A stretch of DNA of 61,272 bases, the filler included. It is 11 parts of 11 records of this genome, joined end to end, with 100 filler letters (N's around TTAATTAATTAA, not from the genome) between each part and the next. Parts side by side here need not be neighbours in the genome. Positions count along the whole stretch, not along the records: positions 1 to 7,832 come from SRR7504441_13404; 10 more parts are not named here. One strand, given 5' to 3'. Positions 1-30,444 of the stretch are shown piece by piece; within the stretch, counting starts at the first letter, position 1; every line of letters starts with the position of its first letter. The position numbers were made by a program, and so were the translations under genes. The notes below the pieces were generated by a model. It ran no database searches, was not told where the DNA came from, and was given only the letters and a program-made list of their open reading frames with translations.

Positions 1-173
1 GGCGGGCTCGGCGCGTGGCCTTTGTAGGTGAGCAGCACCTGTGCCCCCCGATGAATTCCTCGAACGCGGCCGAGCAGGATCAGCGGGCCTACCCAAGAAT
101 CCTCCCAGTCCTCCTGCTCGGCCGGCTCTCCCGGCTCCTGCGGTAGCATCCGCTCCTCGAGATCGGACACCAT
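1..173 (-). CDS. 5' end of a gene of unknown function, cut by the window edge
   Basis: ATG at 173 gives MVSDLEERMLPQEPGEPAEQEDWEDSW, then a GT..AG intron, then VLLTYKGHAPSP running off the edge. Confidence 0.5.
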   Translation of the reverse strand, partial: MVSDLEERMLPQEPGEPAEQEDWEDSWVGPLILLGRVRGIHRGAQVLLTYKGHAPSP

Positions 174-279
174 GGCTTGAGTTGAATTCGGTGAATTCGA
201 ACATTGTGCCGTTGAACTGCTGCTTGATAAGCTACGACCTGATCAGCGTGCGACAGGAATGCGAGCTCTAATCAACTCG

Positions 280-336
280 ATTCCCAACGGTCTTGGGATG
301 GCGGAGCTCGATCTGCGCGCTGGTTGACGCCGTCTC
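280..336. repeat. Upstream element, copy 1 (similar to 2641-2694)
   Basis: ATTCCCAACGGTCTT..GGGATGGCG.AGCTC..TGGTTGA.GCCGTCTC is shared with 2641-2694. It lies about 110 bp upstream of the ATG at 173. Confidence 0.7.
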
Positions 337-395
337 ACGATAGTCTCACGACAGCAACAATTAAATCATGTATTATACAAACATGATTCAATGTA

Positions 396-2572
396 TTACA
401 AACATAAGCTAGCTCGCGCAATGATGTTCTCTTTCTCCCTCGGTCTATCCACGGGCTTATCGCCATGTTCATCATTTGCTCGTACATCGTGTACTGATGG
501 CTGATTACATCGCCATTGTTGATCACAAACTTCTTGCTCCACAAGGCGGTCGATGGGAAACGGTATTGGCAGCCCCAGCTTCATGTTCAATGCGCGCGTC
601 ATTCCTACGACAGATGGGTAATAGGGAGCAACGGCCGCTCTGTACGTCTGTCGCTTCTGCATCCTGTCCAACCAGGCTCGCAATCCTGGTCGGCATCGAA
701 GTGCTGCCCTCGCGTTCAGCTTGTCCGAGCGATACGTTTCCAGGTCAATCAACTGAAACCACTTATTCAACGCCCCCGCCACCGTCCCATCCGCAGCGCA
801 CAGGCTCTCACCCAAGAACTCGGCCTGAGCCAGCCGCCTCTCAAAAACATCCAAAAGTTCCACCATCTTACTCTCTGCATCGCGCTTGGCTTGCACTGCC
901 TCTTTGCCCCCTGCGTTGGCCGAATCTGCCGCGATTGAGAAGGCGACAAGCAATTGACTGCAGCCGTACATATTGTCTGGGTGATCAAGCACGTGCTGTG
1001 GCAGCACTGGGCGCACTGCGGCTTGTTGTTGAAACTCCGGATACAACGTACCCAAGCGCTCCAACACGTTTGCCGAGCCCATCACCCACTCTTTGTTGCC
1101 AATGCTATGACAGATGCACAAGACGGGTACTGTAGCCGATTCCCCCAGCTGATCTTTGATTAGCCTTGTGTATTGATCGGCCTGATCAAATACATCGACT
1201 AGCCGGACTTCGACAGGCAGCGCCGCCTCGAGCACCAGCATCTCCACACCCGACGAGTAAGAGCACCCGCGCCAGAGGATCCCTCGAAACATGTCTCCGC
1301 CACAGTAGAGCACAGTCCGCTGACCCTCCGAGCTACTAATCAGTTCCATCGCGACCGATTGGGTAGGGTCTAGCCCCTTCCTTGGGCTAGACTTGCACGT
1401 TGGGTTGGAGAATCGGTCTACACGAAGCCCCGATCCTTCCTCGTGACCGGCCGCCTGCAAAACGCTCGACACCATCGGATGCTCCAGGTACGTGGGCCTT
1501 ACGTCCAATTGATTCCTGATCTGTTGATCAATCAGCCCAGAGACGCTTGGCATGCTCGCGCCCCGACGCCTCAGCGGAATCACATTGCTGAGCTTGTCGA
1601 AGTTACACTTCAACTTGTCGCCCCCGGGAACCAGCTCGAACGTGTCATCGAATAAACAATTGAAAAGAAAGTCCTCCGATTCATACCTCTTGACAGAGTG
1701 CCTGCGCCCCACGCGTCACAAAGCCAACAATCTAGCAGCTTACATATCGTCAAAGTAGACACTGTCATGTCCCTTTACACTGACAAAAACTGCAAGCTCC
1801 CCCGGGTGGATGTGCTGAAGGGAATCCTCGGACAGACTGTCGAGCACCGTGCCGGCGATGGGCACAGCCATCGTGTATACACAGCTCATGGCTACTATAG
1901 GCTGCGCATCCAGACAGGTTGATTCCATAAAGTCTTCGCCTTCTGCTGTCTGCCGCCGCTTAACCACAGATATCCTGCAGGCAGGACAGATAAATCAGCC
2001 CCGGCCAGACGGGCACCGGAACTCAGGATGGTACAGGAGGTTGCAGCGCAGATTCCCCACCCGTATCATCATCATTCTCACCCCATCGCGGCTAGTGAAC
2101 AGGACATTGCGGCTGGGCTGGGCTCAGTTCGGGTAGATGGCGGGCTGCACCTGAAGACCAGGTCCGTCCGGGGCTGCTGAAGCTTGTGGATCACGAGTGA
2201 GAAAGAAAGCACGTTCAAGAGCAGCCCAACGAATTGCTGCAAGTTGGCCATCATGTACCCGCAGGTCTCGGTAGTGTGCATCGGGCCCCAGCTCATAGTG
2301 ATCACGTTGGTCATAGTGAAGACCATAGTCCGCCCGAATCCGTCTCCTTCGCCCTGCATCACGATCGTCTCGTTGCCGCAGGTTGCCTCAAACAGCCCGG
2401 CGCAGGCCAGGCAGCCCATCGCGTAGCAGAGCAGCACCAGCAGCCCGAACTTGCACCAGCCCATCTTGAGAAGCGTGAAGTAAACGTTCTTGCCCCGCAG
2501 CACCGAGCACAAGTCCGGCCCCGCGCCCGTCCCCGCGTGGCTCTCCCGTGAGTTCGGCTCGCTCGCGGCCAT
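396..2572 (-). CDS. Inward-rectifier (Kir-like) channel fused to a C-terminal GST-fold (DHAR/CLIC/omega-like) domain, about 684 aa
   Basis: Removing GT-AG introns 2113-2150, 1975-2016 and 1702-1743 gives one frame. It has M1-pore-M2 (VYFTLLKMGW..VITMSWG..QQFVGLLL), the Kir cytoplasmic domain (FSRNVLFTSRDG..IRVGNLR..TAEGEDF..VSVKGHD..NFDKL), GST-N (CSYS..VRLVD..TVPVL..WVMGS) and GST-C (LDVFERRL..FLGESLCAAD..PGLRAWLDRM). Confidence 0.85.
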
Positions 2573-2640
2573 CTTCACCCCCGCCTCACTGACCCTTTGC
2601 TCACCGCCCGGCCGCCGCCGCCAGTCCGTCGCAGGTGCCC

Positions 2641-2694
2641 ATTCCCAACGGTCTTACGTTGGGGATGGCGAAGCTCAGTGGTTGAGGCCGTCTC
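2641..2694. repeat. Upstream element, copy 2, in the divergent promoter
   Basis: Similar to 280-336. Overlaps a 12-bp stem CCATTCCCAACG/CGTTGGGGATGG and contains CCCAACGGTC. Confidence 0.7.
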
Positions 2695-2716
2695 TCTCAT
2701 CTGGCAAAGAAGTTGG

Positions 2717-4572
2717 ATGGACGCGCGCTGGCGGCTCGCGGTGATGTGCCTCGCGGTGCTCGAATCGAACGCCCTCTTATCGACCCGCTGCGCACCGGGC
2801 TGCGCCCGCGACTCTCCGGGCTCACCCTGCGATGGCTTTTGCTGCGACCCGACTGCGCCCCACTGCCCCTACCCAGAGGACTTCAATCCACAGACCCAGA
2901 CGTATCCCATGTGCGAGCCGTCGGCGACCAGGTGCCCAGGCTCGGGCAAGCCGTGCCTCCGAAGCTGGTCCTACTCGGATCGCGAGAGCGTGATGTGCTC
3001 CGGTGCTGCCCGCCCCACAAACAACAGCTGCGCCCACGGGTCACACATCTGGTGCCGGAGCGACGCAGCCTGCTTGCAGTGCGTAGAGTGCGACGGAAGC
3101 TGCCCCGACGGCCGCTGCATCACCGGAGCCTGCCAGAGCTCGCCCAGCAGCAGCAGGCCCCGTCGCTCCCGGCCGCACGACCCAATTGCCAGCCCCGAGC
3201 CGCCGCGGCTAGCGCAGCTCGACGGGTTCATTCGGGATGAGATGGCCCGGGGCAAGATCCCTGGGCTCTCGGCGGCGGTGCTGCACCGTGACAAGCTGCT
3301 CTGGAGTGGCGAGTACGGCAGTGCAATGCCCAACGCCTCTGATCCATCGGATTACCCTGTGCTCGGTACAACCAAGTTTGAGCTGGCGAGCCTCTCTAAG
3401 ACGGTGGTGGCAATGGCGGTGGCCGTGCTGCACGACAGAGGCTTGATCGACATCCAGCAGGGGGTGAACGCGTACCTTCCCTTCAATGTGACCAACCCAC
3501 ACTTTGTGGGCGAGCAGATCACATTGCACGGACTGCTGACGCATACCTCCAGTATCTCAGACAGAGGCTACAACAGCCTGGACGGGAGGCTCCTATACTC
3601 CGAGGGCGACCCTAACATGGGCCTGGGACCGTTCCTCAAAGCGCTACTCGCGCGGCGCGGCAAATGGTACACCGCAGAGAGCTTCAGCCAGAAGCATCGG
3701 CCTCAGACCCACTTCGACTACTCCAATGTAGGCGCCTCGCTGGCCGCTTACGTAGCAGAGATTGTGGCGCAGAGGGCAGGCCTAGCAGCCTCGTTCAACC
3801 AGTTTGTGCGGGGGTACGTGTTCGCGCCGCTGGGCGTCACTGCCGCATCGTATCTGACTAGCGACTTCGGCGGTGAACACAAGCTGGCACCACCTGCAGG
3901 TGCCTTTCCATCCGAGTTCATTCAAACGAAGTTCCAGAGTTATTGCTTCTATAACTTCCCGGATTACCCGGACGGTGAGCCAACTTGCCCAGTTTATACC
4001 GTTGTGCCACCGACACATGGGGTTCAGGTGCGTTCAAGGTCTCTGCGCTGGACTATGCCAAGATGCTTGGAGCGTTTATGAACGATGGCGTCTTCAACGG
4101 GCGCAGGCTCATCAATGCGAGCACTGCAGCATACATGCGCCAGGTTGCTACTGGACTGTGTGAGCCGCAGCCTTGTGGTGGCGACCTGCCCCAAGCCCAG
4201 ATCTTCTTCTACTACAAACAGCTTGGTAATCGGCGGCTGCTTGGCCACAATGGGGGTGAGATGGGGATTGCAACTGAGGCCTTCTTCAATGTCCAGTCCA
4301 GGATCGGGTTTGTCGTCCTCACTAATGGTGATTGGGGTCCGGGTATCACCAACCCATTTACACGCAGTTTTCTGGCTATTGAGCAAAAGTTGCTGGACAT
4401 CTTTGACCGCGACGATTCGAGTGCACACCTTGGCGGTGGTGACTTGATGAGCACGGCGCCTATGATAGACCATCTACGTGCACGTAGCGCTACTACTGTT
4501 AGCACACGTAATGGTACCACTAGTAGGCACCGGCGATGCCCTTGCGGTCTACCTTGCAATCGCAAATCGTAG
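2717..4572 (+). CDS. Secreted beta-lactamase/PBP-family serine hydrolase with a Cys-rich N-terminal region
   Basis: Signal-like N-terminus, SxxK (ASLSK), LLTHTSSI, YSN and HNG motifs. A single GT-AG intron at 3975-4027 joins PDG to AFKVSALDY. Confidence 0.85.
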
Positions 4573-4635
4573 AGCGCTTCAAATGGTTCTCATTGATCAT
4601 CAATCTTTAATATATCTTAATCTTATCTTAATCTA

Positions 4636-7152
4636 CTAGCTATAGGGCCGATCTGTCGCCTGAAAGTACTTGAATACTGAGACAGGAGTCGCCACGTTTG
4701 GGGCCATACCAAACGCTTGCGCTGTGATTGTGGTTGTGTTTCCATGCAGGGGAATCACGGCAACGAATCGCGGCGATGAATCCAGCGGTGGTGACCCATC
4801 GAGAGTGTACCGAATAGTGGCTGAGACTCCAGGTGGCAAAGTCAGCCATGCTTGAGCCGCTGGACCAACGATGATACCACCCGATGGGGTACTTTTACAA
4901 GTACCCTGGCAGCCGCCACGCACGACGCCGTCAAAGTTGGAGTCTGCGTGTGCTGACCGATATAGGAGCGGATAGGCGCTGCTCTCGTAGAAAGGCGGCA
5001 GCTGGTTTCCGAAGAGATCTGGGCACTCTTGATACGCAACAGAGTTGCTGCAATTGTTCATGCCTCCCGTGCACGAACAGATAGGCCGGGTCGGCGGGAG
5101 CGCTGTCCGCTTGAGTGCTGAGGCGAGCTGCACAAGCAGGCGCCGTGAATGGTGGAAATCGTCTAATCGGTCATGTGCAAAATACCCCCGCCAGCGCCCC
5201 ATGCCCTCTGCGAGCAAGAGGGCATCAAGCGCGCTTTCCATGGCAGCTACCGCGCCCTCCACTTGACTCGCTGTCGCTGCTGCAGAGGGCGCCAGGACCG
5301 ACGCCGCTAGCCGCCGTAAAGCGAGCGAGCCGTTGCCAAGGAGGTACTGCTGCGCTAGCAAGTGCCCTAGAAACATGGGTCGAGATCGCTGCGGCAACGT
5401 TGCTAAGACCGCCTCGCTCTTTCTCGCCAGTGAGACCCATCGCGCAACATTTACACCTGCCGTCGCGTTTATCGCCTTTGCCTTTGCCTGCAGCGAGGAA
5501 AAGTTGAAGTCGCCGGCGTGCATGAGCATCGCGTCGGCCAAGTTCTGGATGTCGATAATCAAGGCGTAGTCCGACTGTGACTGCGGAGCGCTAGAGCCAG
5601 CCTGTGCGTAGTCCTCGTGCACCGCGGCGACAGCTTGAGCGCTGGGTTTGCCATAGTGTCTCTCGCTCCATCGCCTTATGAAAGCTGAAGCGTTCGTCCC
5701 AGTTGCGCCCGGAGAGAAGGCAAAGCTCATGGCAGCGGCGAGAGACAGGAGATACGGCTTCAAATCCGAGGCGTTCAGGATAAAGATCGAGGCACGGCCA
5801 TCCGAGCTGCGCTTGGCCTTTGCGAAAACAGAGCTGAGCTCCGACAAAATCGTGGTCACCGGCACCCATTCGCTGAGCTGGTTTGCTCGCGAGCAGACGT
5901 GGTAATAGATGCCATCGCCAGGTCGGATGTCAGCCAGGCCGATTACCTTGCCACTCCCGTTGTCGGCGAACACAACAACCGTAGAGTCGGGGAGTTTGAG
6001 AGACCCTGACTTCCAAAGCGGCAACATCTCGCTCCACATGTAGGCGATCGATTGGACACCATCGCCACCAGCACCGACGAGCCGCTTGTTGCCGCGCAGG
6101 AGTTCAAGCTGCCTGCGCATGGCTGCTCCGATCACCTCTCCTCGCAGAGTCACATTTGCGACCCGGGGATCCGCCGGACTGTCGAGCCACCAGCTGTAAT
6201 CGTTCAAGCCTCGGAGCCCAAGGGTCCAGAGCACCGCAGCGCTGGCATTGGATGCCTTTGGCAGCGCGTCGAGAATGCCATCGATCGATGTCGCCCAGCC
6301 ATGCTCCATCACCTGTGGGGAGTTGAGAAACGAGAACGGCGCACCGCCCGAGCTCCGCCCGATGTCCCCGCCCGTAGCGGCTGGCGCGTTGGGCCACCGC
6401 ATGACATTCAGGCCGACCGGCGTCACATGGTGCTGAAGGAGCCGCAGGCCTCGCTTGGCGGCCAGCGTCGTGCCGCCTCGCTGGTCGGGAAAATTGGCCG
6501 TGCCGCTAATGACGCCGTTTGCCTTGAGCCGCAGCAGGCATTCGTACACAGCGTTGTACGTGTCGCCGCTGATGCCATCCCCCAGCGGATCCTGGCCAAA
6601 GCCGGCAGTCAGATCTTCATCGTTGATGAACACGGCGCGAACCACCCAACCGTCCGGTACGAAGCGGATCGCGAGGCCCTCGTCGGGGAGCGAAATGCCT
6701 CGGCTCCGTGCCGGCGGAAGGTCCGCAAAATGGTGGAGCGGGACAACCCCCAAGATGTGCTCGCTGAAGGCGTAGAGCCCGTAGACCGCACCCAGCGACG
6801 AGTCCGCAGCGCCCGTCGCCACCAGCGCCGAGCCCGTCCAAATCACACAGTGCGACTCCGGACGACTGAGACATCCATCCGTCCGCGGCAGCAGCTCGCG
6901 ACCAGCAGTGCCAAACACTACGGCAGGGCGCTGCGGCGTAGCGTAGCGGGTCGGCGCACTGTCGACGACGACGGGCGGACTGCCGAAGACGCTGTAAAAG
7001 TCACGCTTGAGGTCAGCGAAGGCCAAGCTGAACGCCGCGTCCTCCCAGTCCTCCGGGTCCACCACCAGCACCGTGTCGCGAGTCAGCGTCGCGGCGGCGG
7101 CGGCGGCCGTGGTTGGGAGTAAGGCAAGGCAGATGAGAGCCCAGCATTTCAT
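4636..7152 (-). CDS. Secreted GH115-like glycoside hydrolase with a C-terminal CHB_HEX_C/Fn3-associated domain
   Basis: Intronless 838-aa ORF with a signal peptide, VRAVFINDED, ECLLRLKAN, WTLGLRG, GIYYHV and a C-terminal IRYTLDGS. Confidence 0.8.
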   Translation of the reverse strand: MKCWALICLALLPTTAAAAAATLTRDTVLVVDPEDWEDAAFSLAFADLKRDFYSVFGSPPVVVDSAPTRYATPQRPAVVFGTAGRELLPRTDGCLSRPESHCVIWTGSALVATGAADSSLGAVYGLYAFSEHILGVVPLHHFADLPPARSRGISLPDEGLAIRFVPDGWVVRAVFINDEDLTAGFGQDPLGDGISGDTYNAVYECLLRLKANGVISGTANFPDQRGGTTLAAKRGLRLLQHHVTPVGLNVMRWPNAPAATGGDIGRSSGGAPFSFLNSPQVMEHGWATSIDGILDALPKASNASAAVLWTLGLRGLNDYSWWLDSPADPRVANVTLRGEVIGAAMRRQLELLRGNKRLVGAGGDGVQSIAYMWSEMLPLWKSGSLKLPDSTVVVFADNGSGKVIGLADIRPGDGIYYHVCSRANQLSEWVPVTTILSELSSVFAKAKRSSDGRASIFILNASDLKPYLLSLAAAMSFAFSPGATGTNASAFIRRWSERHYGKPSAQAVAAVHEDYAQAGSSAPQSQSDYALIIDIQNLADAMLMHAGDFNFSSLQAKAKAINATAGVNVARWVSLARKSEAVLATLPQRSRPMFLGHLLAQQYLLGNGSLALRRLAASVLAPSAAATASQVEGAVAAMESALDALLLAEGMGRWRGYFAHDRLDDFHHSRRLLVQLASALKRTALPPTRPICSCTGGMNNCSNSVAYQECPDLFGNQLPPFYESSAYPLLYRSAHADSNFDGVVRGGCQGTCKSTPSGGIIVGPAAQAWLTLPPGVSATIRYTLDGSPPLDSSPRFVAVIPLHGNTTTITAQAFGMAPNVATPVSVFKYFQATDRPYS

Positions 7153-7242
7153 CCCAGACCCGGTCGGGTCGAGCTGCCGCGGCCGTTATTTCAGTTTGCC
7201 CAGCCGGCAGACACTGGCAGCACACTCCGCCCTGAAGGAGAC

Positions 7243-7791
7243 ATGAAGGAGCGCTCGAGCGCCCAGCCAGCCGATCCTTGCCGAGCGCAGCGATGCTCGA
7301 GCTGCGGCGGGAGCTATCCTCGCGAGTGCTTCGCCCAGGGTCGACTCACCTGCAACAAGTGCGCTCACCCCAACTCGACCCGCAAAAAGAAGCGTGCCGA
7401 GGCCAAAGCGAGGACTGCAGCTGAACGCGAGAAGGACCGCAAAGGCAAATCTTGGTGTGCTGCAAAGAGGGGCTGGTGCGACGAGCGTGGCTTCGAGGAG
7501 GGGGCGCGCTCTTGCCGTCACTGCCGGCTGCGGGGAAGAGCTCGCGCAGAAGAGAGCCGCACGAACAATCCGAAGACCAGCCGCACGCGGAGCGTAGGGG
7601 ACGGCATCAAGAGGGCCGCGGAGTTGGAGCCCAACGATCTGGAGTTTGCGGCGGCCAAAAAGTCCAAAAGTGCAGCACAACACCCAACAGATCTGTATTC
7701 ATGGGAGATCGATCTTGCCGACCTGCCTGGCGCAGCCGAACTGCTGGTATTCATGAGGCGCAACCCCATCGGAATGATAATATCGGAATAG
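7243..7791 (+). CDS. Hypothetical basic protein with CxxC pairs (possible zinc binding)
   Basis: 182-aa ATG ORF with CSSC, CNKC and CRHC. It is near the contig end and may be incomplete. Confidence 0.5.
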   Translation: MKERSSAQPADPCRAQRCSSCGGSYPRECFAQGRLTCNKCAHPNSTRKKKRAEAKARTAAEREKDRKGKSWCAAKRGWCDERGFEEGARSCRHCRLRGRARAEESRTNNPKTSRTRSVGDGIKRAAELEPNDLEFAAAKKSKSAAQHPTDLYSWEIDLADLPGAAELLVFMRRNPIGMIISE

Positions 7792-7832
7792 GGTAACGCG
7801 GAGTCGGGCAGGACTGGGGATTGAGCACCCCA

Positions 7833-26186: not shown

Positions 26187-28470
26187 CTACATTGAATCAA
26201 GTCCTGCAGTAGACGCCTTTCGGACAGAAGTGTCTCCCTTGACAGTCTGCGCTGCTGTTTTTGCTGTTTCTGCTTTGCTTTCGGCAACGACTGGCTTGTT
26301 TGCAGTGGCTCGCCGCAGTAACGAGACTGTATTCACCACTTTTGCAACTGCATGCGCCTTTAACCAGTTAGAGCTCTTGGATCCAGCTTTACTCTTCGAG
26401 TAGTCCACCTTCAATGCACCAGTAAGGGTTGGCTAACAGGCCAGGGCGAAAGTGCATACCAGCAAGTCGCGGAACTGTGGCCAGACTTCCATAACTTCAT
26501 CAAAGGCATCCTTTGAGAGCACAAGCATATCGCAGAATGTGGTTGCCCGGACTGTGGCATTTCGTCTCGTGCCACGAAGTGTGGCTTGTTCACCAAAGAC
26601 ATCGCCGGCTTTCAGTGTGGCAACATAACGTTCATGGAACTGCTGTTCTCCGGTGCTCACTCGGTTGTAGAAGTCTTCGCTAGTTTCATCATACTTTGTT
26701 ACTGTGGCACTTCCGATAGCATACATAATGATTCCAAGCAAAATCATAAGTAATGAAAAGATATGCTCCAAAAACGTCACCTGGACACTCAAGCAAATGA
26801 GTAGGCTCCGCCGAGCCAGGGAAAATTCACCGGCTCAATATCACGTCCGATTCCAGTGGTGACCATGACAGCCCAGAAGAATGCAGCAACGTACTGGGTG
26901 CCCATCGAGGTATCGCCGCCATATGCAGGGTCCCAGAGCAGCCGAATGGGCATCCAAGTATTCTTTTCAGCATTCCATTCCTCTCCCTCTTCTCCTCTCC
27001 CTCGCCCAAAGTCCTCGTAAACGCAAATTGTCCAGTAGGCGCACGCAATCCAGTGCCATACTACCAGCAACGCGCCAAACAGCTGGACAAGCCGTAGCAC
27101 CGAGGGATTGATGTCAAAGCCGACGGTGATCCGCTTCATGATGCGAACAATTCGAAATACGCGGAGCAGCTTAAAAATTCGGAGCAGCTTCAGCAGCTTA
27201 TTGACTGAGCCGCTCCCCTGCAGGAACAGATCGATTGGAACGCTAGCGATGACATCCACACAGAACCATGTCTTGAGATACTCCTTTGCCACTTCGGAGT
27301 TCGATGTGACCATGGTGCCTTCGCGTTCAAATGCAGTAAAAAAGTTGAGCACAATGTCAGCAATGAATACGGCATTGCAAATCTGATCAAAGACAAATAG
27401 TCCAAGCGATTCGGTTTCTGTATCCCAAGCCACACGCATCGGGACTGACATGCCGTAGTACACCACTAACAGCATGATCATCAGATCCCATCTGAGTCTG
27501 AAGGTGGAGTCGGGCCTAATTACGCATCCATCAGCGTGATCACTAGGAGTTGGCGCCATTGCATCATCCCACTCCATGAACTCGTCTAACATGTCGTCGC
27601 CCCACTCGATGCTCTTCCGTTTGTCATCTTGACCTTTCTCGTCCTGCTTAGTCTTAGGAACTTCCTTACTCCCCAGCCTCTTTGTGACTTGTGGCTTGTC
27701 CTTGGGCAGATCAATCTTTGGGCGGGATTGAGTCGAATCATTCTTGGGAGTCCCTGGATTGAATGTCACTTGGAGTGCCTTTCGGCGGTGCTCTCCCCCG
27801 GCAGCAGTGCCCTCCTCCCGCAATGGTTTCTCTGCGCGTGGTCGGAGGTCTTCGAGCTGAGTGGGTGAGAGTGGGTGACGTGGCTCTGGTGCAACCTGTG
27901 CTGGCTCTGCTTTTGGTGGTGCACTGAACCAATTCTGCTCTGCCAGTCTGTTCCGCTCGATTCGAGGCACCTGCACCAGTTGGGTCGGCCAGAGGCCCAC
28001 CGCTGCACACCTCGGCGGTCGGCAGGCTTGCCGCCCCGAACCATCCAGCCCTCGGGCTTTCTGGTGCTGGTGCGATCTTTGCAGAGATGCCCTGTTGTGA
28101 GGTAGGCATCACGGCGGTGGGCAGGGCTATCAATGGCCGAGGGCTCATCGGGCTCATCGGCCCCTGAGCGAGCGAGGCCGGCGGCTGAGCCATCTGGCGC
28201 AGGAACCGGCCCGCGAATCGGGACTCCCATATGGCCTGCTTGCTGCCCGGGAAGTGAGCGGCCAGCGGACCGGCCGGGCACCGTTGATTCTTGTTCAGCA
28301 CCTGTTGGAACGCCATCTGGTTGAGCGTATCCCGCCGGGCATCGGGTGTGTTGCCGTCGGACCGTATGCTCCTGCCTCCGACTGCCGGGGGCCCAGCCAG
28401 GGGGGGGCGACCGTCGTATCTCGCGAGTGCGCTGGTTCTGCATGAGCAGGTGCGTGTGCACGAACGGCAT
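26187..28470 (-). CDS. 6-TM cyclic-nucleotide-binding-domain cation channel (EAG/HCN/CNG-like), C-linker missing
   Basis: VIRPDSTFRLRWD, DIVLNFFTAF, YLKTWFCVDVIASVP, S4 LLKLLRIFKLLRVFRIVR, HWIAC, pore FFWAVMVTTGIGRD, and CNBD GDVFGE..RRNATVRATTFCD. Start inferred. Confidence 0.85.
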
Positions 28471-28921
28471 CGCGGCAGCCCGTGCCGCCGCCTCGCGCCT
28501 TGGGCTGACCGGTCCCGGTTCATCTGTCACGTGCCCGCTGTGCAGTCGGATGAAGCTGTAAACGGAAGCGATGCAAGGACACTGGGGAGACTCGATCGGC
28601 AAGCACGCCGGCGGGTAGCCCCCGCGGGCTGCGGCTGCCGGCTCAGCTGGACCCGGCAGGTTCAACCTGCCCGGGCTGACTCCCACCGAATCCCGCCGCA
28701 AGCCGCACGACGCCAGCATCGGGAGCCCCGTCAAGGCACCGCCCACCCGTCCCGCCTGAGCCCGCCGGCAGCGCGACCGCGGCCCGTCCAAGAGCCGGCT
28801 GTCGGGGTGCCCCCTCGGACCGGCCCTCCGGCCCAGCGGGCGGGGCAGTCGGGAGGGCTCGAGTGGCTCGCGAGGCAACTCGTCGGCGAGCTCGCCGCTG
28901 TGGGGCTCGCAGGGAGGGCTA

Positions 28922-30444
28922 ATGCTGCAGGCGCCCGACTGGCCAGGCGCCCAACGGCTCATCGTCCCGGCGCAGATCGGCGGCGAGCCGGCAGCGGGGG
29001 GCGCACGCCGTGGGTGTGTGCAGGAGCTGCGGAATGCTGTGGACTGGGGAATTGCGGTGCGCAGCGAGGCGGGCAGGCGGGGGGATGGCGAGCTGGGGGG
29101 TGCACAGAATAGGGTCCATGGCGGTGTCGACGCTGGCAGCGTTGCAGGGCCAATCAATGCCGGTGTGGTGGCTGGGCCATCGCTGCACCAGCAGGGGGTG
29201 TCAGGGGCTCCTGTCGAGATTGGGATAATGAGCACCAACGAGGAGCCATCGCCGCAACCGTCGCCCACAGAGCCGATCCAGACCGACATAGCGGAGGAGA
29301 TCGATCAAGTGGGGACGGTGACAGCCAGGTGTTGCAGTCTGGCTGAGTCGACAGGGCAGGTTTCGAGTTCGACAGTGCAGTGGCGCTGGAAGCGGGGAGC
29401 AATGATAGGATCAGGATCCTACGGTGCAAACAATTGGGGAGCAGCAAGCTGACTGGGGATAGGCCGGGTGTATCTCGGGATGAATTTAGACACTGGTGAG
29501 CTGCTAGCTGTTAAGCAGCTCGAGTACATGGAGTCTGTCGACACGGTCTGGCCAGCATGCGGCAGGCTCTCAACCTGAGGACAGGACCGCGAGAAGATTG
29601 AGTCATTGGAGCAGGAGGTTGCAATTATGAAAACCCTCAGGCACGAGCTCATCGGCCCTGGTTGAGTCTTTCTGCCAGGCACCCTAACGTTTGTGGGTAC
29701 CTTGGAACTGAGCGCATTCCGGTGCGAGGCGTGCTGGTGGCTGTGGGCACTCACTGACTCGACAGGGCGACTCGCCGGGGACTAAGATACTTAATATTCT
29801 GTTGGAGTACGTCCCTGGCGGTGCCCAGCCACACCCTCTGGGTCGGCAAGCCTGGACTAGGTTCAATTAGCCAGCTGCTGCGGTCTTTTGGGGCATTTGG
29901 GGAGAAGGTGCAGAAGCGTCAGATCCGGCTGCTGTAGGGCTGGGCCAGGTGATCCAGCATTACACGCATCAGATCATCGAGGGTCTGGAGTACCTGCACG
30001 GCAACAAAGTAGCACATAGAGATGTCAAAGGGGCCAACATCCTGGTGAACAGCACATAGACTGGCATTGAGTCTGATGGCTGCAGGTCACGTCCGACGGC
30101 CGGGTAAAGTTGTCGGACTTTGGGCACTCTAAGCGGCTGGAGAGCACAGTGGCCACGCATAATTTCCACTCCCTCAAGGGAACAGCGTTTTGGATGGCGC
30201 CAGAGGTACCACCGCCCGTCTCTAGGGCAAGTATGATAGGCTTTGGATAGGTGATTAAGCAGGAGGGGCATGGACGGAGGGCGGACATTTGGAGCGTCGG
30301 TTGTACAGTGGTGGAAATGGCCTCCGGTGCGGACTTGCTTGTACTAGGAGCTCCTGGACTTACCCATGTGTTAGGCAAACCACCATGGTCCGAGTTATCT
30401 AACCAGTTGACGGCAATGTTTACTATTGCCACTAGTGAGGAACC
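28922..30444 (+). CDS. STE11/NPK1-type MAP kinase kinase kinase, 3' end truncated
   Basis: [63 protein letters not shown] and GKPPW. Many short introns. Start uncertain. Confidence 0.92.

Follow-up and report, generated by a model that had tools for sequence, protein, structure and literature searches.

Can an ion channel of the inward-rectifier (Kir) architecture and a glutathione S-transferase (GST) fold be parts of one and the same protein and, if they are, what would such a protein do? The question is raised by a gene of a marine eukaryote on the minus strand of a 61,272-nucleotide (nt) stretch of DNA (the window, by which we mean the whole stretch that was analysed), whose positions 1 to 7,832 come from record SRR7504441_13404 and whose assembly quality is unknown. 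An earlier note on this DNA had proposed that positions 396 to 2572 encode a Kir channel fused to a DHAR/CLIC-like GST domain, and that such a protein could couple ion flux to the glutathione redox state. Our investigations demonstrate that the Kir-GST gene is genuine and encodes, as a single gene, a two-part membrane protein of 684 residues, and that the fusion is conserved in a second organism and undescribed in the literature that we found. Its first part is homologous to Kir-type channels and carries a non-canonical selectivity filter, and its second part is homologous to GST folds and carries a conserved cysteine. The function that we propose below for this combination is a prediction from sequence alone.

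The gene is read from four minus-strand exons that join into 2055 nt, that is 684 codons and a stop, with no internal stop codon. Exon 1 (2572-2151) contains the ATG (2572-2570), a short N-terminus, the outer of two predicted transmembrane helices (M1, 2458-2390), the pore helix with the filter (2338-2276) and the inner predicted transmembrane helix (M2, 2260-2180). The Kir cytoplasmic domain begins in exon 2 (2112-2017; RNVLFTSRDG...HPEF), has its middle portion in exon 3 (1974-1744) and ends in exon 4 (1701-396, stop at 398-396), which goes on to encode a linker, the N- and C-terminal GST-like subdomains and a basic tail. The introns skipped are 38, 42 and 42 nt long (2150-2113, where codon 141 is interrupted, 2016-1975 and 1743-1702), and every one of them runs from GT to AG; splicing in silico gives exactly the three canonical introns of 38-42 nt and the 684-codon frame that had been described before. 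More importantly for the fusion, the end of the Kir cytoplasmic domain and the complete GST-like region share one open stop-to-stop frame of 439 codons (396-1715). As both lie in one open exon, the fusion is independent of the splice calls, as the earlier note had argued. The G+C contents at the first, second and third codon positions of the spliced frame (GC1, GC2 and GC3) are 0.59, 0.42 and 0.68, and tblastn found no second copy of the gene within the window.

Support for the fusion also comes from another organism. When the exon-4 translation was compared by HMMER with 1,835,955,588 representative proteins, the sole match at E<=0.001 was a 523-residue protein (P0001, E 9.3e-11), whose 90% cluster includes a protein of 714 residues (P0002, KAK3288457.1) from the prasinophyte green alga Cymbomonas tetramitiformis. 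The latter is labelled "hypothetical protein" at NCBI and "GST C-terminal domain-containing protein" as UniRef100_A0AAE0H1W1. By BLASTP, the four exons are colinear on P0002 with identities of 25-52% per exon: exon 1 matches residues 9-144 (E 3e-17), exon 2 residues 146-176 (52% identity, E 6e-10), exon 3 residues 178-256 (E 3e-11) and exon 4 residues 259-645 (E 7e-30), and the residues of P0002 that lie between these ranges are the codons split by introns. Aligned by MAFFT with P0001, the spliced protein has 167 identities in 485 aligned columns (34%) and is gapless at all three exon junctions. An identical order of parts in another organism makes a mis-assembly or a wrong join very unlikely. 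The two Cymbomonas models are not the same throughout: seven residues just past the filter are present only in P0002, and the C-terminal continuations differ. The Cymbomonas gene model is not settled in the region of the pore and within the GST_C part.

The architecture seems to be known from very few sequences. Among the representative proteins searched with exon 4, only the Cymbomonas cluster matched; word-based homologue searches gave nothing for exon 4 (in the near length class) and only its own cluster for P0002 (residues 1-714). No relative was confirmed in two metagenome-contig scans and one viral-contig scan, which used narrow patterns and are weak evidence of rarity. The known members of the Kir-GST family are thus two, the window protein and the Cymbomonas protein. 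The top full-text literature matches held no description of a natural Kir-GST fusion, with subscription journals and supplements outside this scope and absence therefore unproven. The statement that no Kir-GST fusion had been described consequently survives for the literature, where we found none, but the architecture was already present in databases as a Cymbomonas entry that, as far as the searches show, is unstudied.

What kind of channel is the first part? Residues 1-293 are, on the evidence of homology, a KirBac-like inward-rectifier module with two predicted transmembrane helices, a P-loop and a beta-rich cytoplasmic gating domain. Searched by phmmer against the PDB, exon 1 found KirBac1.1 as its best match (1p7b, E 2.8e-5, query 28-140 to chain 49-158), and Kir or KirBac proteins made up nine of the nine rows at E<=10. 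With a profile of exon 4 aligned with P0002 (alignment A3), the 44 best PDB rows (E<=1e-4) were all Kir or KirBac, and the match to KirBac1.1 (E ~1e-11) began at the pore helix and covered the cytoplasmic domain to its end (chain residues 97-307 of 333). The same alignment places the last Kir cytoplasmic strands of the window protein (1700-1572, spliced residues 251-293, ...KRYESEDF...NFDKLSNVIPL) on KirBac1.1. Exons 2 and 3 are assigned to the cytoplasmic domain by transitivity, because they are colinear with the part of P0002 that matches KirBac1.1. Bacterial KirBac proteins scored better than animal Kir channels in both the exon-1 and the A3 searches, and residues 4-299 of the ESM Atlas model of P0002 (mean predicted local distance difference test, pLDDT, 0.62) resembled bacterial Ion_trans_2/IRK_C/IRK clusters with template-modelling (TM) scores of 0.76-0.87, normalised by hit. 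A two-transmembrane pore module with Kir-homologous slide helix, pore helix and M2, followed directly after M2 by a cytoplasmic Kir domain, is therefore what the comparison with the Kir/KirBac family (TC 1.A.2) returns; the Pfam scores stay under the cut-offs. The N-terminus and M1 of the window protein (2510-2390) contain seven cysteines within spliced residues 22-65, where the Cymbomonas M1 has one; this richness in cysteine is perhaps relevant to thiol chemistry, perhaps only fortuitous.

It is in the selectivity filter that the module departs from a potassium channel. The filter (2299-2285, spliced residues 92-96) reads T-M-S-W-G, and the HMMER alignment sets T-V-G-Y-G-D of KirBac1.1 opposite T-M-S-W-G-P of the window protein; the Cymbomonas protein has T-M-G-W-G. 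The earlier note makes no mention of this departure. The K+ signature T-x-G-[YF]-G was looked for in both proteins and is present in neither, and the pore-helix Glu of KirBac1.1 is replaced by Thr in both. With TMSWG and TMGWG in the place of TxGYG, K+ selectivity is therefore doubtful, and the designation of the gene as a Kir channel is correct for the homology of its pore and cytoplasmic domain but not for its filter. NirBac channels, which combine the Kir/KirBac architecture with non-canonical filters, are functional and conduct cations non-selectively (Zubcevic et al. 2015, PMC4607889), and NirBac2.1 has an overall conserved P-loop with the filter TTGTD (PMC4607889). Based on this analysis, the pore is more likely to be a cation path of weak or no selectivity, like that of NirBac, than a K+-selective one.

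The second part of the protein is more diverged. A two-subdomain GST fold over residues ~378-612 is supported at the profile level, with a putative N-terminal, thioredoxin-like subdomain (1319-1038) and a putative C-terminal all-helical subdomain (1037-615). Four Pfam models fall on exon 4 in the expected N-to-C order: GST_N_2 (exon-4 residues 146-218, E 1.2e-3, 19.9 bits for a cut-off of 25), GST_N_3 (residues 143-222, E 1.4e-3, 19.4 bits for a cut-off of 22), GST_C_2 (residues 272-346, E 4.1e-5, 24.0 bits for a cut-off of 24.9) and GST_C (E 0.09, 13.5 bits for a cut-off of 20.7). On the Cymbomonas models, GST_C_2 reached E 0.022 and GST_N_2 E 0.11. We then aligned the GST-like parts of the two proteins (alignment A4) and compared them by hhalign with eight aligned GST-family frames of E. 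coli K-12 (NC_000913.3) that had been found by Pfam GST_N_3. The match reached a probability of 94.4% (E 8.8e-8) over 177 columns and spanned both subdomains (query 24-237 to template 17-200 of 212), while the reversed query gave 0.3% and 30 column shuffles gave at most 0.9%, with scores of at most 19.2 against 56.1 for the real alignment; taken separately, the N block gave 85.9% (E 5.2e-6) and the C block 37.4%. The placing of a GST domain in the C-terminal half is supported by this comparison and its controls. In the PDB, the 16 rows that the A4 profile found at E<=10 were ten GSTs, four DHARs and two glutaredoxins, and exon 4 alone had no meaningful phmmer match. A language-model feature search of the Atlas gave GST clusters in the ten rows shown of 30, with scores of 0.92-0.93 and 142-158 shared features, values in the range of distant relatives. 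Finally, the low-confidence AlphaFold2 (AF2) model has the order strand-helix-strand-helix-strand-strand-helix and then further helices, as would a thioredoxin-like unit followed by a helical bundle.

If this domain is to read glutathione, its candidate active site is the motif CSYS (1265-1254, spliced residues 396-399). The codon for Cys396, the candidate redox-active residue, is TGC at 1265-1263; the residue occupies an invariant column of A3 (C146), and the Cymbomonas protein reads CTFS at this place. When A4 was compared with the PDB, the Cys of CSYS aligned with the Cys of the DHAR motif CPFS, and the VP of the DHAR cis-Pro loop aligned with a VP of the window protein. In the E. coli alignment, the column opposite Cys396 holds the first Cys of CPYC in one frame, which we take to be Grx2. 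The proposal that CSYS stands where DHAR, CLIC and omega GSTs have their active site is borne out to this extent, since the Cys falls in the catalytic-Cys column of Cys-type GSTs and of that presumed Grx2 frame. The aromatic residue and the Ser that follow the Cys are retained in both members, with Ser (window) or Thr (Cymbomonas) in the place of the motif Pro, and so are the cis-Pro column (VP in the window protein, SP in the Cymbomonas protein) and the helix-3 Ser/Thr. Further landmarks of the N-terminal subdomain are RGILW (1286-1272), the cis-Pro segment TVPVL (1133-1119) and, where helix 3 begins, G-S (1082-1065).

Between the two parts lies a linker of ~84 residues (1571-1320), which has few identities in A3 and is acidic in Cymbomonas; over exon-4 residues 41-130, which cover it, blocks of the AF2 model have a pLDDT of 22-36. 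The protein closes with a basic tail (446-399) that ends in -LCL, and the basic tail of the Cymbomonas protein (P0002 residues ~690-714) ends in -MCI. The last four residues are SLCL and HMCI, with the Cys penultimate in both; a CaaX prenylation box, which we had considered for this C-terminus, was rejected because of this position of the Cys. A role of the basic tail and its penultimate Cys in lipidation or membrane contact would be conceivable.

Is the gene transcribed? Of 18 sequencing runs with small word shares, four were mapped, and their pieces of 151-221 nt are uninformative on the splice model. Contigs of at least 99% identity were found at 2192-2342 and 2455-2605 in a poly-A metatranscriptome (X7), at 2441-2615 in another metatranscriptome (X15), both of which cover exon 1 with sequence upstream of it, at 706-925, in the GST_C-coding part, in a second poly-A metatranscriptome (X10), and at 300-435, 1339-1494 and 1745-1898 in a marine metagenome (X1). 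Both halves of the gene are present in the RNA libraries of three studies, which is a hint of transcription and not proof of it. No contig or read in the four mapped runs crosses an intron or the whole of 1300-1700, and most of the gene is uncovered in them; the read mapping across 1300-1700 suggested before thus gave no spanning read and, with pieces as short as these, speaks neither for nor against the junction.

From these parts, a mechanism can be proposed. The Kir module would be tetrameric and gated through its cytoplasmic ring, by homology with Kir and KirBac channels, for which this is established, and four Cys-GST domains would be suspended below the cytoplasmic gating ring by the flexible linkers of ~84 residues. 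Binding of glutathione, or a mixed disulfide at Cys396, could alter the pairing of the GST domains or their docking on the ring, which would bias the gate of a weakly selective cation pore, and cation flux would in this way be tied to the cellular glutathione redox state. We tentatively favour this role of the GST domain as a thiol or glutathione sensor that biases the gate, at something short of an even chance. The coupling of ion flux to the glutathione redox state is what we infer from the architecture, and it would be speculative in every step, from tetramer formation to conduction, ion selectivity and glutathione binding. It is doubtful, if conceivable, that the window and Cymbomonas proteins together represent a new class of redox-gated cation channel, in which a tetramer of Kir architecture with a TM[GS]WG filter carries Cys-GST domains that read glutathione through a mixed disulfide at Cys396.

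A number of observations weigh against the sensor proposal. In the channel part, Pfam IRK on exon 1 (E 0.0086, 16.4 bits) is under its cut-off of 22.7; IRK_C has no match on the exon-by-exon translations, a way of scanning that lowers scores, and reaches 19.2 and 19.9 bits on the two Cymbomonas models for a cut-off of 22.5. Altogether five of five Pfam matches on the window exons and four of four on P0001 and P0002 are under the curated cut-off, and NCBIfam gave no relevant match. The HMMER check that had been advised, run here exon by exon, accordingly returned the expected IRK, GST_N and GST_C models, but all of them below cut-off and IRK_C not at all. The Ser at the first filter Gly may leave the pore non-conducting. 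For the GST-like part, single sequences are weaker than the alignment in hhalign (44.0% for the window protein alone, 11.3% for the Cymbomonas part alone), the A4 profile has no individually significant GST, DHAR or glutaredoxin match in the PDB (best E 0.052), and both AF2 models, built from two-row alignments, are of low confidence (mean pLDDT 34.7 and 41.7). Searched with Foldseek, the poor AF2 model had no match at E<=0.001 and TM scores of 0.17-0.35, with GST or DHAR in 34 of the 35 listed rows. The conservation of the Cys is that of two members out of two. Neither member has the Pro of CPFS, and both have Gly for the acidic residue of the E/D-S pair that binds the gamma-glutamyl moiety; with these missing, glutathione binding may be weak or lost. 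As for the type of GST, similarity to DHARs or glutaredoxins is not significant (best DHAR E 0.083, best glutaredoxin E 0.76, both with A4 in the PDB). The label "DHAR/CLIC-like" is therefore not upheld, and assignment to a class of Cys-GST (DHAR, CLIC, omega or other) is not established by these comparisons.

Some of these observations would be explained if the GST-like domain were a non-catalytic assembly or docking module, which pairs neighbouring C-termini or recruits partners without any glutathione chemistry. Non-catalytic GST-like domains of this kind occur in eEF1B-gamma, some aminoacyl-tRNA synthetases and GDAP1, and a domain so diverged that all its Pfam GST matches stay below cut-off, with Gly for the acidic residue and no motif Pro, may have lost its chemistry; the long flexible linker would permit GST-GST pairing beneath the four-fold ring. 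However, the Cys at the catalytic position, the aromatic-Ser pair, the cis-Pro and the helix-3 Ser/Thr have all been retained at an overall identity of 25-34%, as expected if the thiol site matters, and we regard such a non-catalytic module as unlikely, though far from negligible. The opposite division of labour can also be imagined, in which the pore is dead and serves as a tetrameric membrane anchor, the active part being a membrane-held Cys-GST enzyme (a thiol transferase of DHAR-, Grx- or omega-like type). The Ser at the required first Gly of GYG, the Trp in the place of Tyr and the exchange of the pore-helix Glu for Thr in both members would fit this explanation, as would the glutaredoxin-like activity that CLIC proteins are reported to have in their soluble GST-fold form (PMC4291220). 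We nevertheless consider it improbable: in both members a Kir-like character is still recognisable in the pore helix, in M2 and throughout the cytoplasmic gating domain, which would not be expected of a mere anchor, and NirBac channels with odder filters conduct (PMC4607889).

It might also be asked whether a fused protein is made at all, as an error in contig assembly, a wrongly joined gene model or a pseudogene in decay could give the same appearance. The assembly is of unknown quality, and the mapped libraries offer no contig or read across an intron or the whole linker. Against such an artefact stand the 439-codon open frame that contains the Kir end, the linker and the GST, the recurrence of this order of parts in both gene models of an independent genome, that of another organism, a codon-position composition of GC3 > GC1 > GC2, and the pieces of at least 99% identity from both halves in RNA-library contigs of three studies; together they leave it a very small chance indeed. 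The reading of the GST domain as a thiol or glutathione sensor of a weakly selective pore is the one that we tentatively prefer.

Why would such a protein matter? Few clues to functional coupling at the level of sequence are as good as natural domain fusions, and the window and Cymbomonas proteins form a concrete pair for testing the idea of coupling. Should the pore be regulated by the GST domain, marine algae would possess, in compact and genetically encoded form, a link from glutathione redox state to cation flux across the membrane. A non-K+ filter here would also extend to a eukaryote the finding made with NirBac, that a Kir scaffold can carry non-K+ filters. If the domain is only a scaffold or the pore is dead, the gene would be a curiosity of domain shuffling.

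Upon further characterization of the window, we made several observations on the surroundings of the gene. An imperfect direct repeat of ~55 nt lies on either side of it on the minus strand (2668-2641 and 301-280, in wider extent ~2640-2690 and 280-340), with the sequence GAGACGGC[C/G]TCAACCA ... GAGCT[T/C]CGCCATCCC ... AAGACCGTTGGGAAT. Exactly two copies are present in the 61-kb window, and none is expected in shuffles. The first precedes the ATG at 2572 by 69-96 nt; the second follows the stop by 95-116 nt and precedes the ATG (at 173) of the following minus-strand frame by 107-128 nt. Both copies contain a short palindrome (CCCAACG..CGTTGGG and TCCCAA..TTGGGA), and the repeat may be an upstream control element that two tandem genes share. 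The contigs from RNA libraries end at 2605 and 2615, before the upstream copy. A divergent neighbour on the plus strand (2552-4081) encodes a Beta-lactamase domain (PF00144, E 3.8e-30) with a Cys-rich N-terminal part; its first ATG is at ~2717, ~145 nt from that of the Kir-GST gene, so that the two genes stand head to head across a compact intergenic region. Farther away, the minus-strand frame 26789-28108 is a second channel-type gene (Ion_trans, E 1.5e-21), and other frames of the window encode GH115, GH127, a 2OG-Fe(II) oxygenase and WD40+GYF domains. Where long frames overlap on one strand, as do 26789-28108 and 27766-29304, there may be additional short introns.

The Kir-GST protein can be set beside several known systems. 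Its only close counterpart is KAK3288457.1 of Cymbomonas, which has a Kir-like pore and cytoplasmic domain, a linker, a Cys-GST domain and a basic tail in the same order and the motifs TM[GS]WG, RGILW and C-[ST]-[YF]-S in common with it, and which differs in having TMGWG for TMSWG and an acidic linker. Among solved structures, the closest matches are KirBac1.1 (1p7b) and KirBac3.1, with the same two-transmembrane pore and beta-rich cytoplasmic domain. The KirBac proteins are bacterial, have a TVGYG filter and stop after the cytoplasmic domain, whereas the window gene is eukaryotic and intron-containing and its protein continues for ~390 residues of linker, GST fold and tail. NirBac channels resemble it in their Kir/KirBac architecture with an altered filter, a likeness by description; they are prokaryotic, their filters have other sequences, and the portion of the report at hand mentions no GST domain (PMC4607889). 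On the other side of the fusion, DHARs, CLICs, omega GSTs and Grx2 have the thioredoxin-like and helical fold that is predicted for the window protein and a nucleophilic Cys at the N-terminus of helix 1, with CPFS (DHAR) or CPYC (Grx2) aligning with CSYS, but the window protein has neither the motif Pro nor the acidic residue of the E/D-S pair, and its pairwise similarity to them is not significant. CLICs are thought to build a pore from the GST-fold protein itself, unlike the window protein, whose pore would be a separate Kir-type module. What the two would have in common is a GST fold linked to ion conduction, a link reported for CLICs (PMC4291220). If our proposal is true, the Kir-GST protein would be the first example of a channel that senses through a GST fold covalently joined to a separate P-loop pore. 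The nearest functional analogy is offered by the Kv-beta subunits of Kv1 channels, which are aldo-keto reductases (AKR), and by the glutathione-gated K+ efflux system KefC/KefF, both of which place a redox or glutathione module at the cytoplasmic face of a channel or transporter. Their folds are unrelated (AKR in the one, KTN/RCK with a flavodoxin-like partner in the other), their modules are separate subunits or belong to other transporters, and none of them is a Kir-GST; a Kir pore regulated by its own GST domain would be a parallel to them built from different parts.

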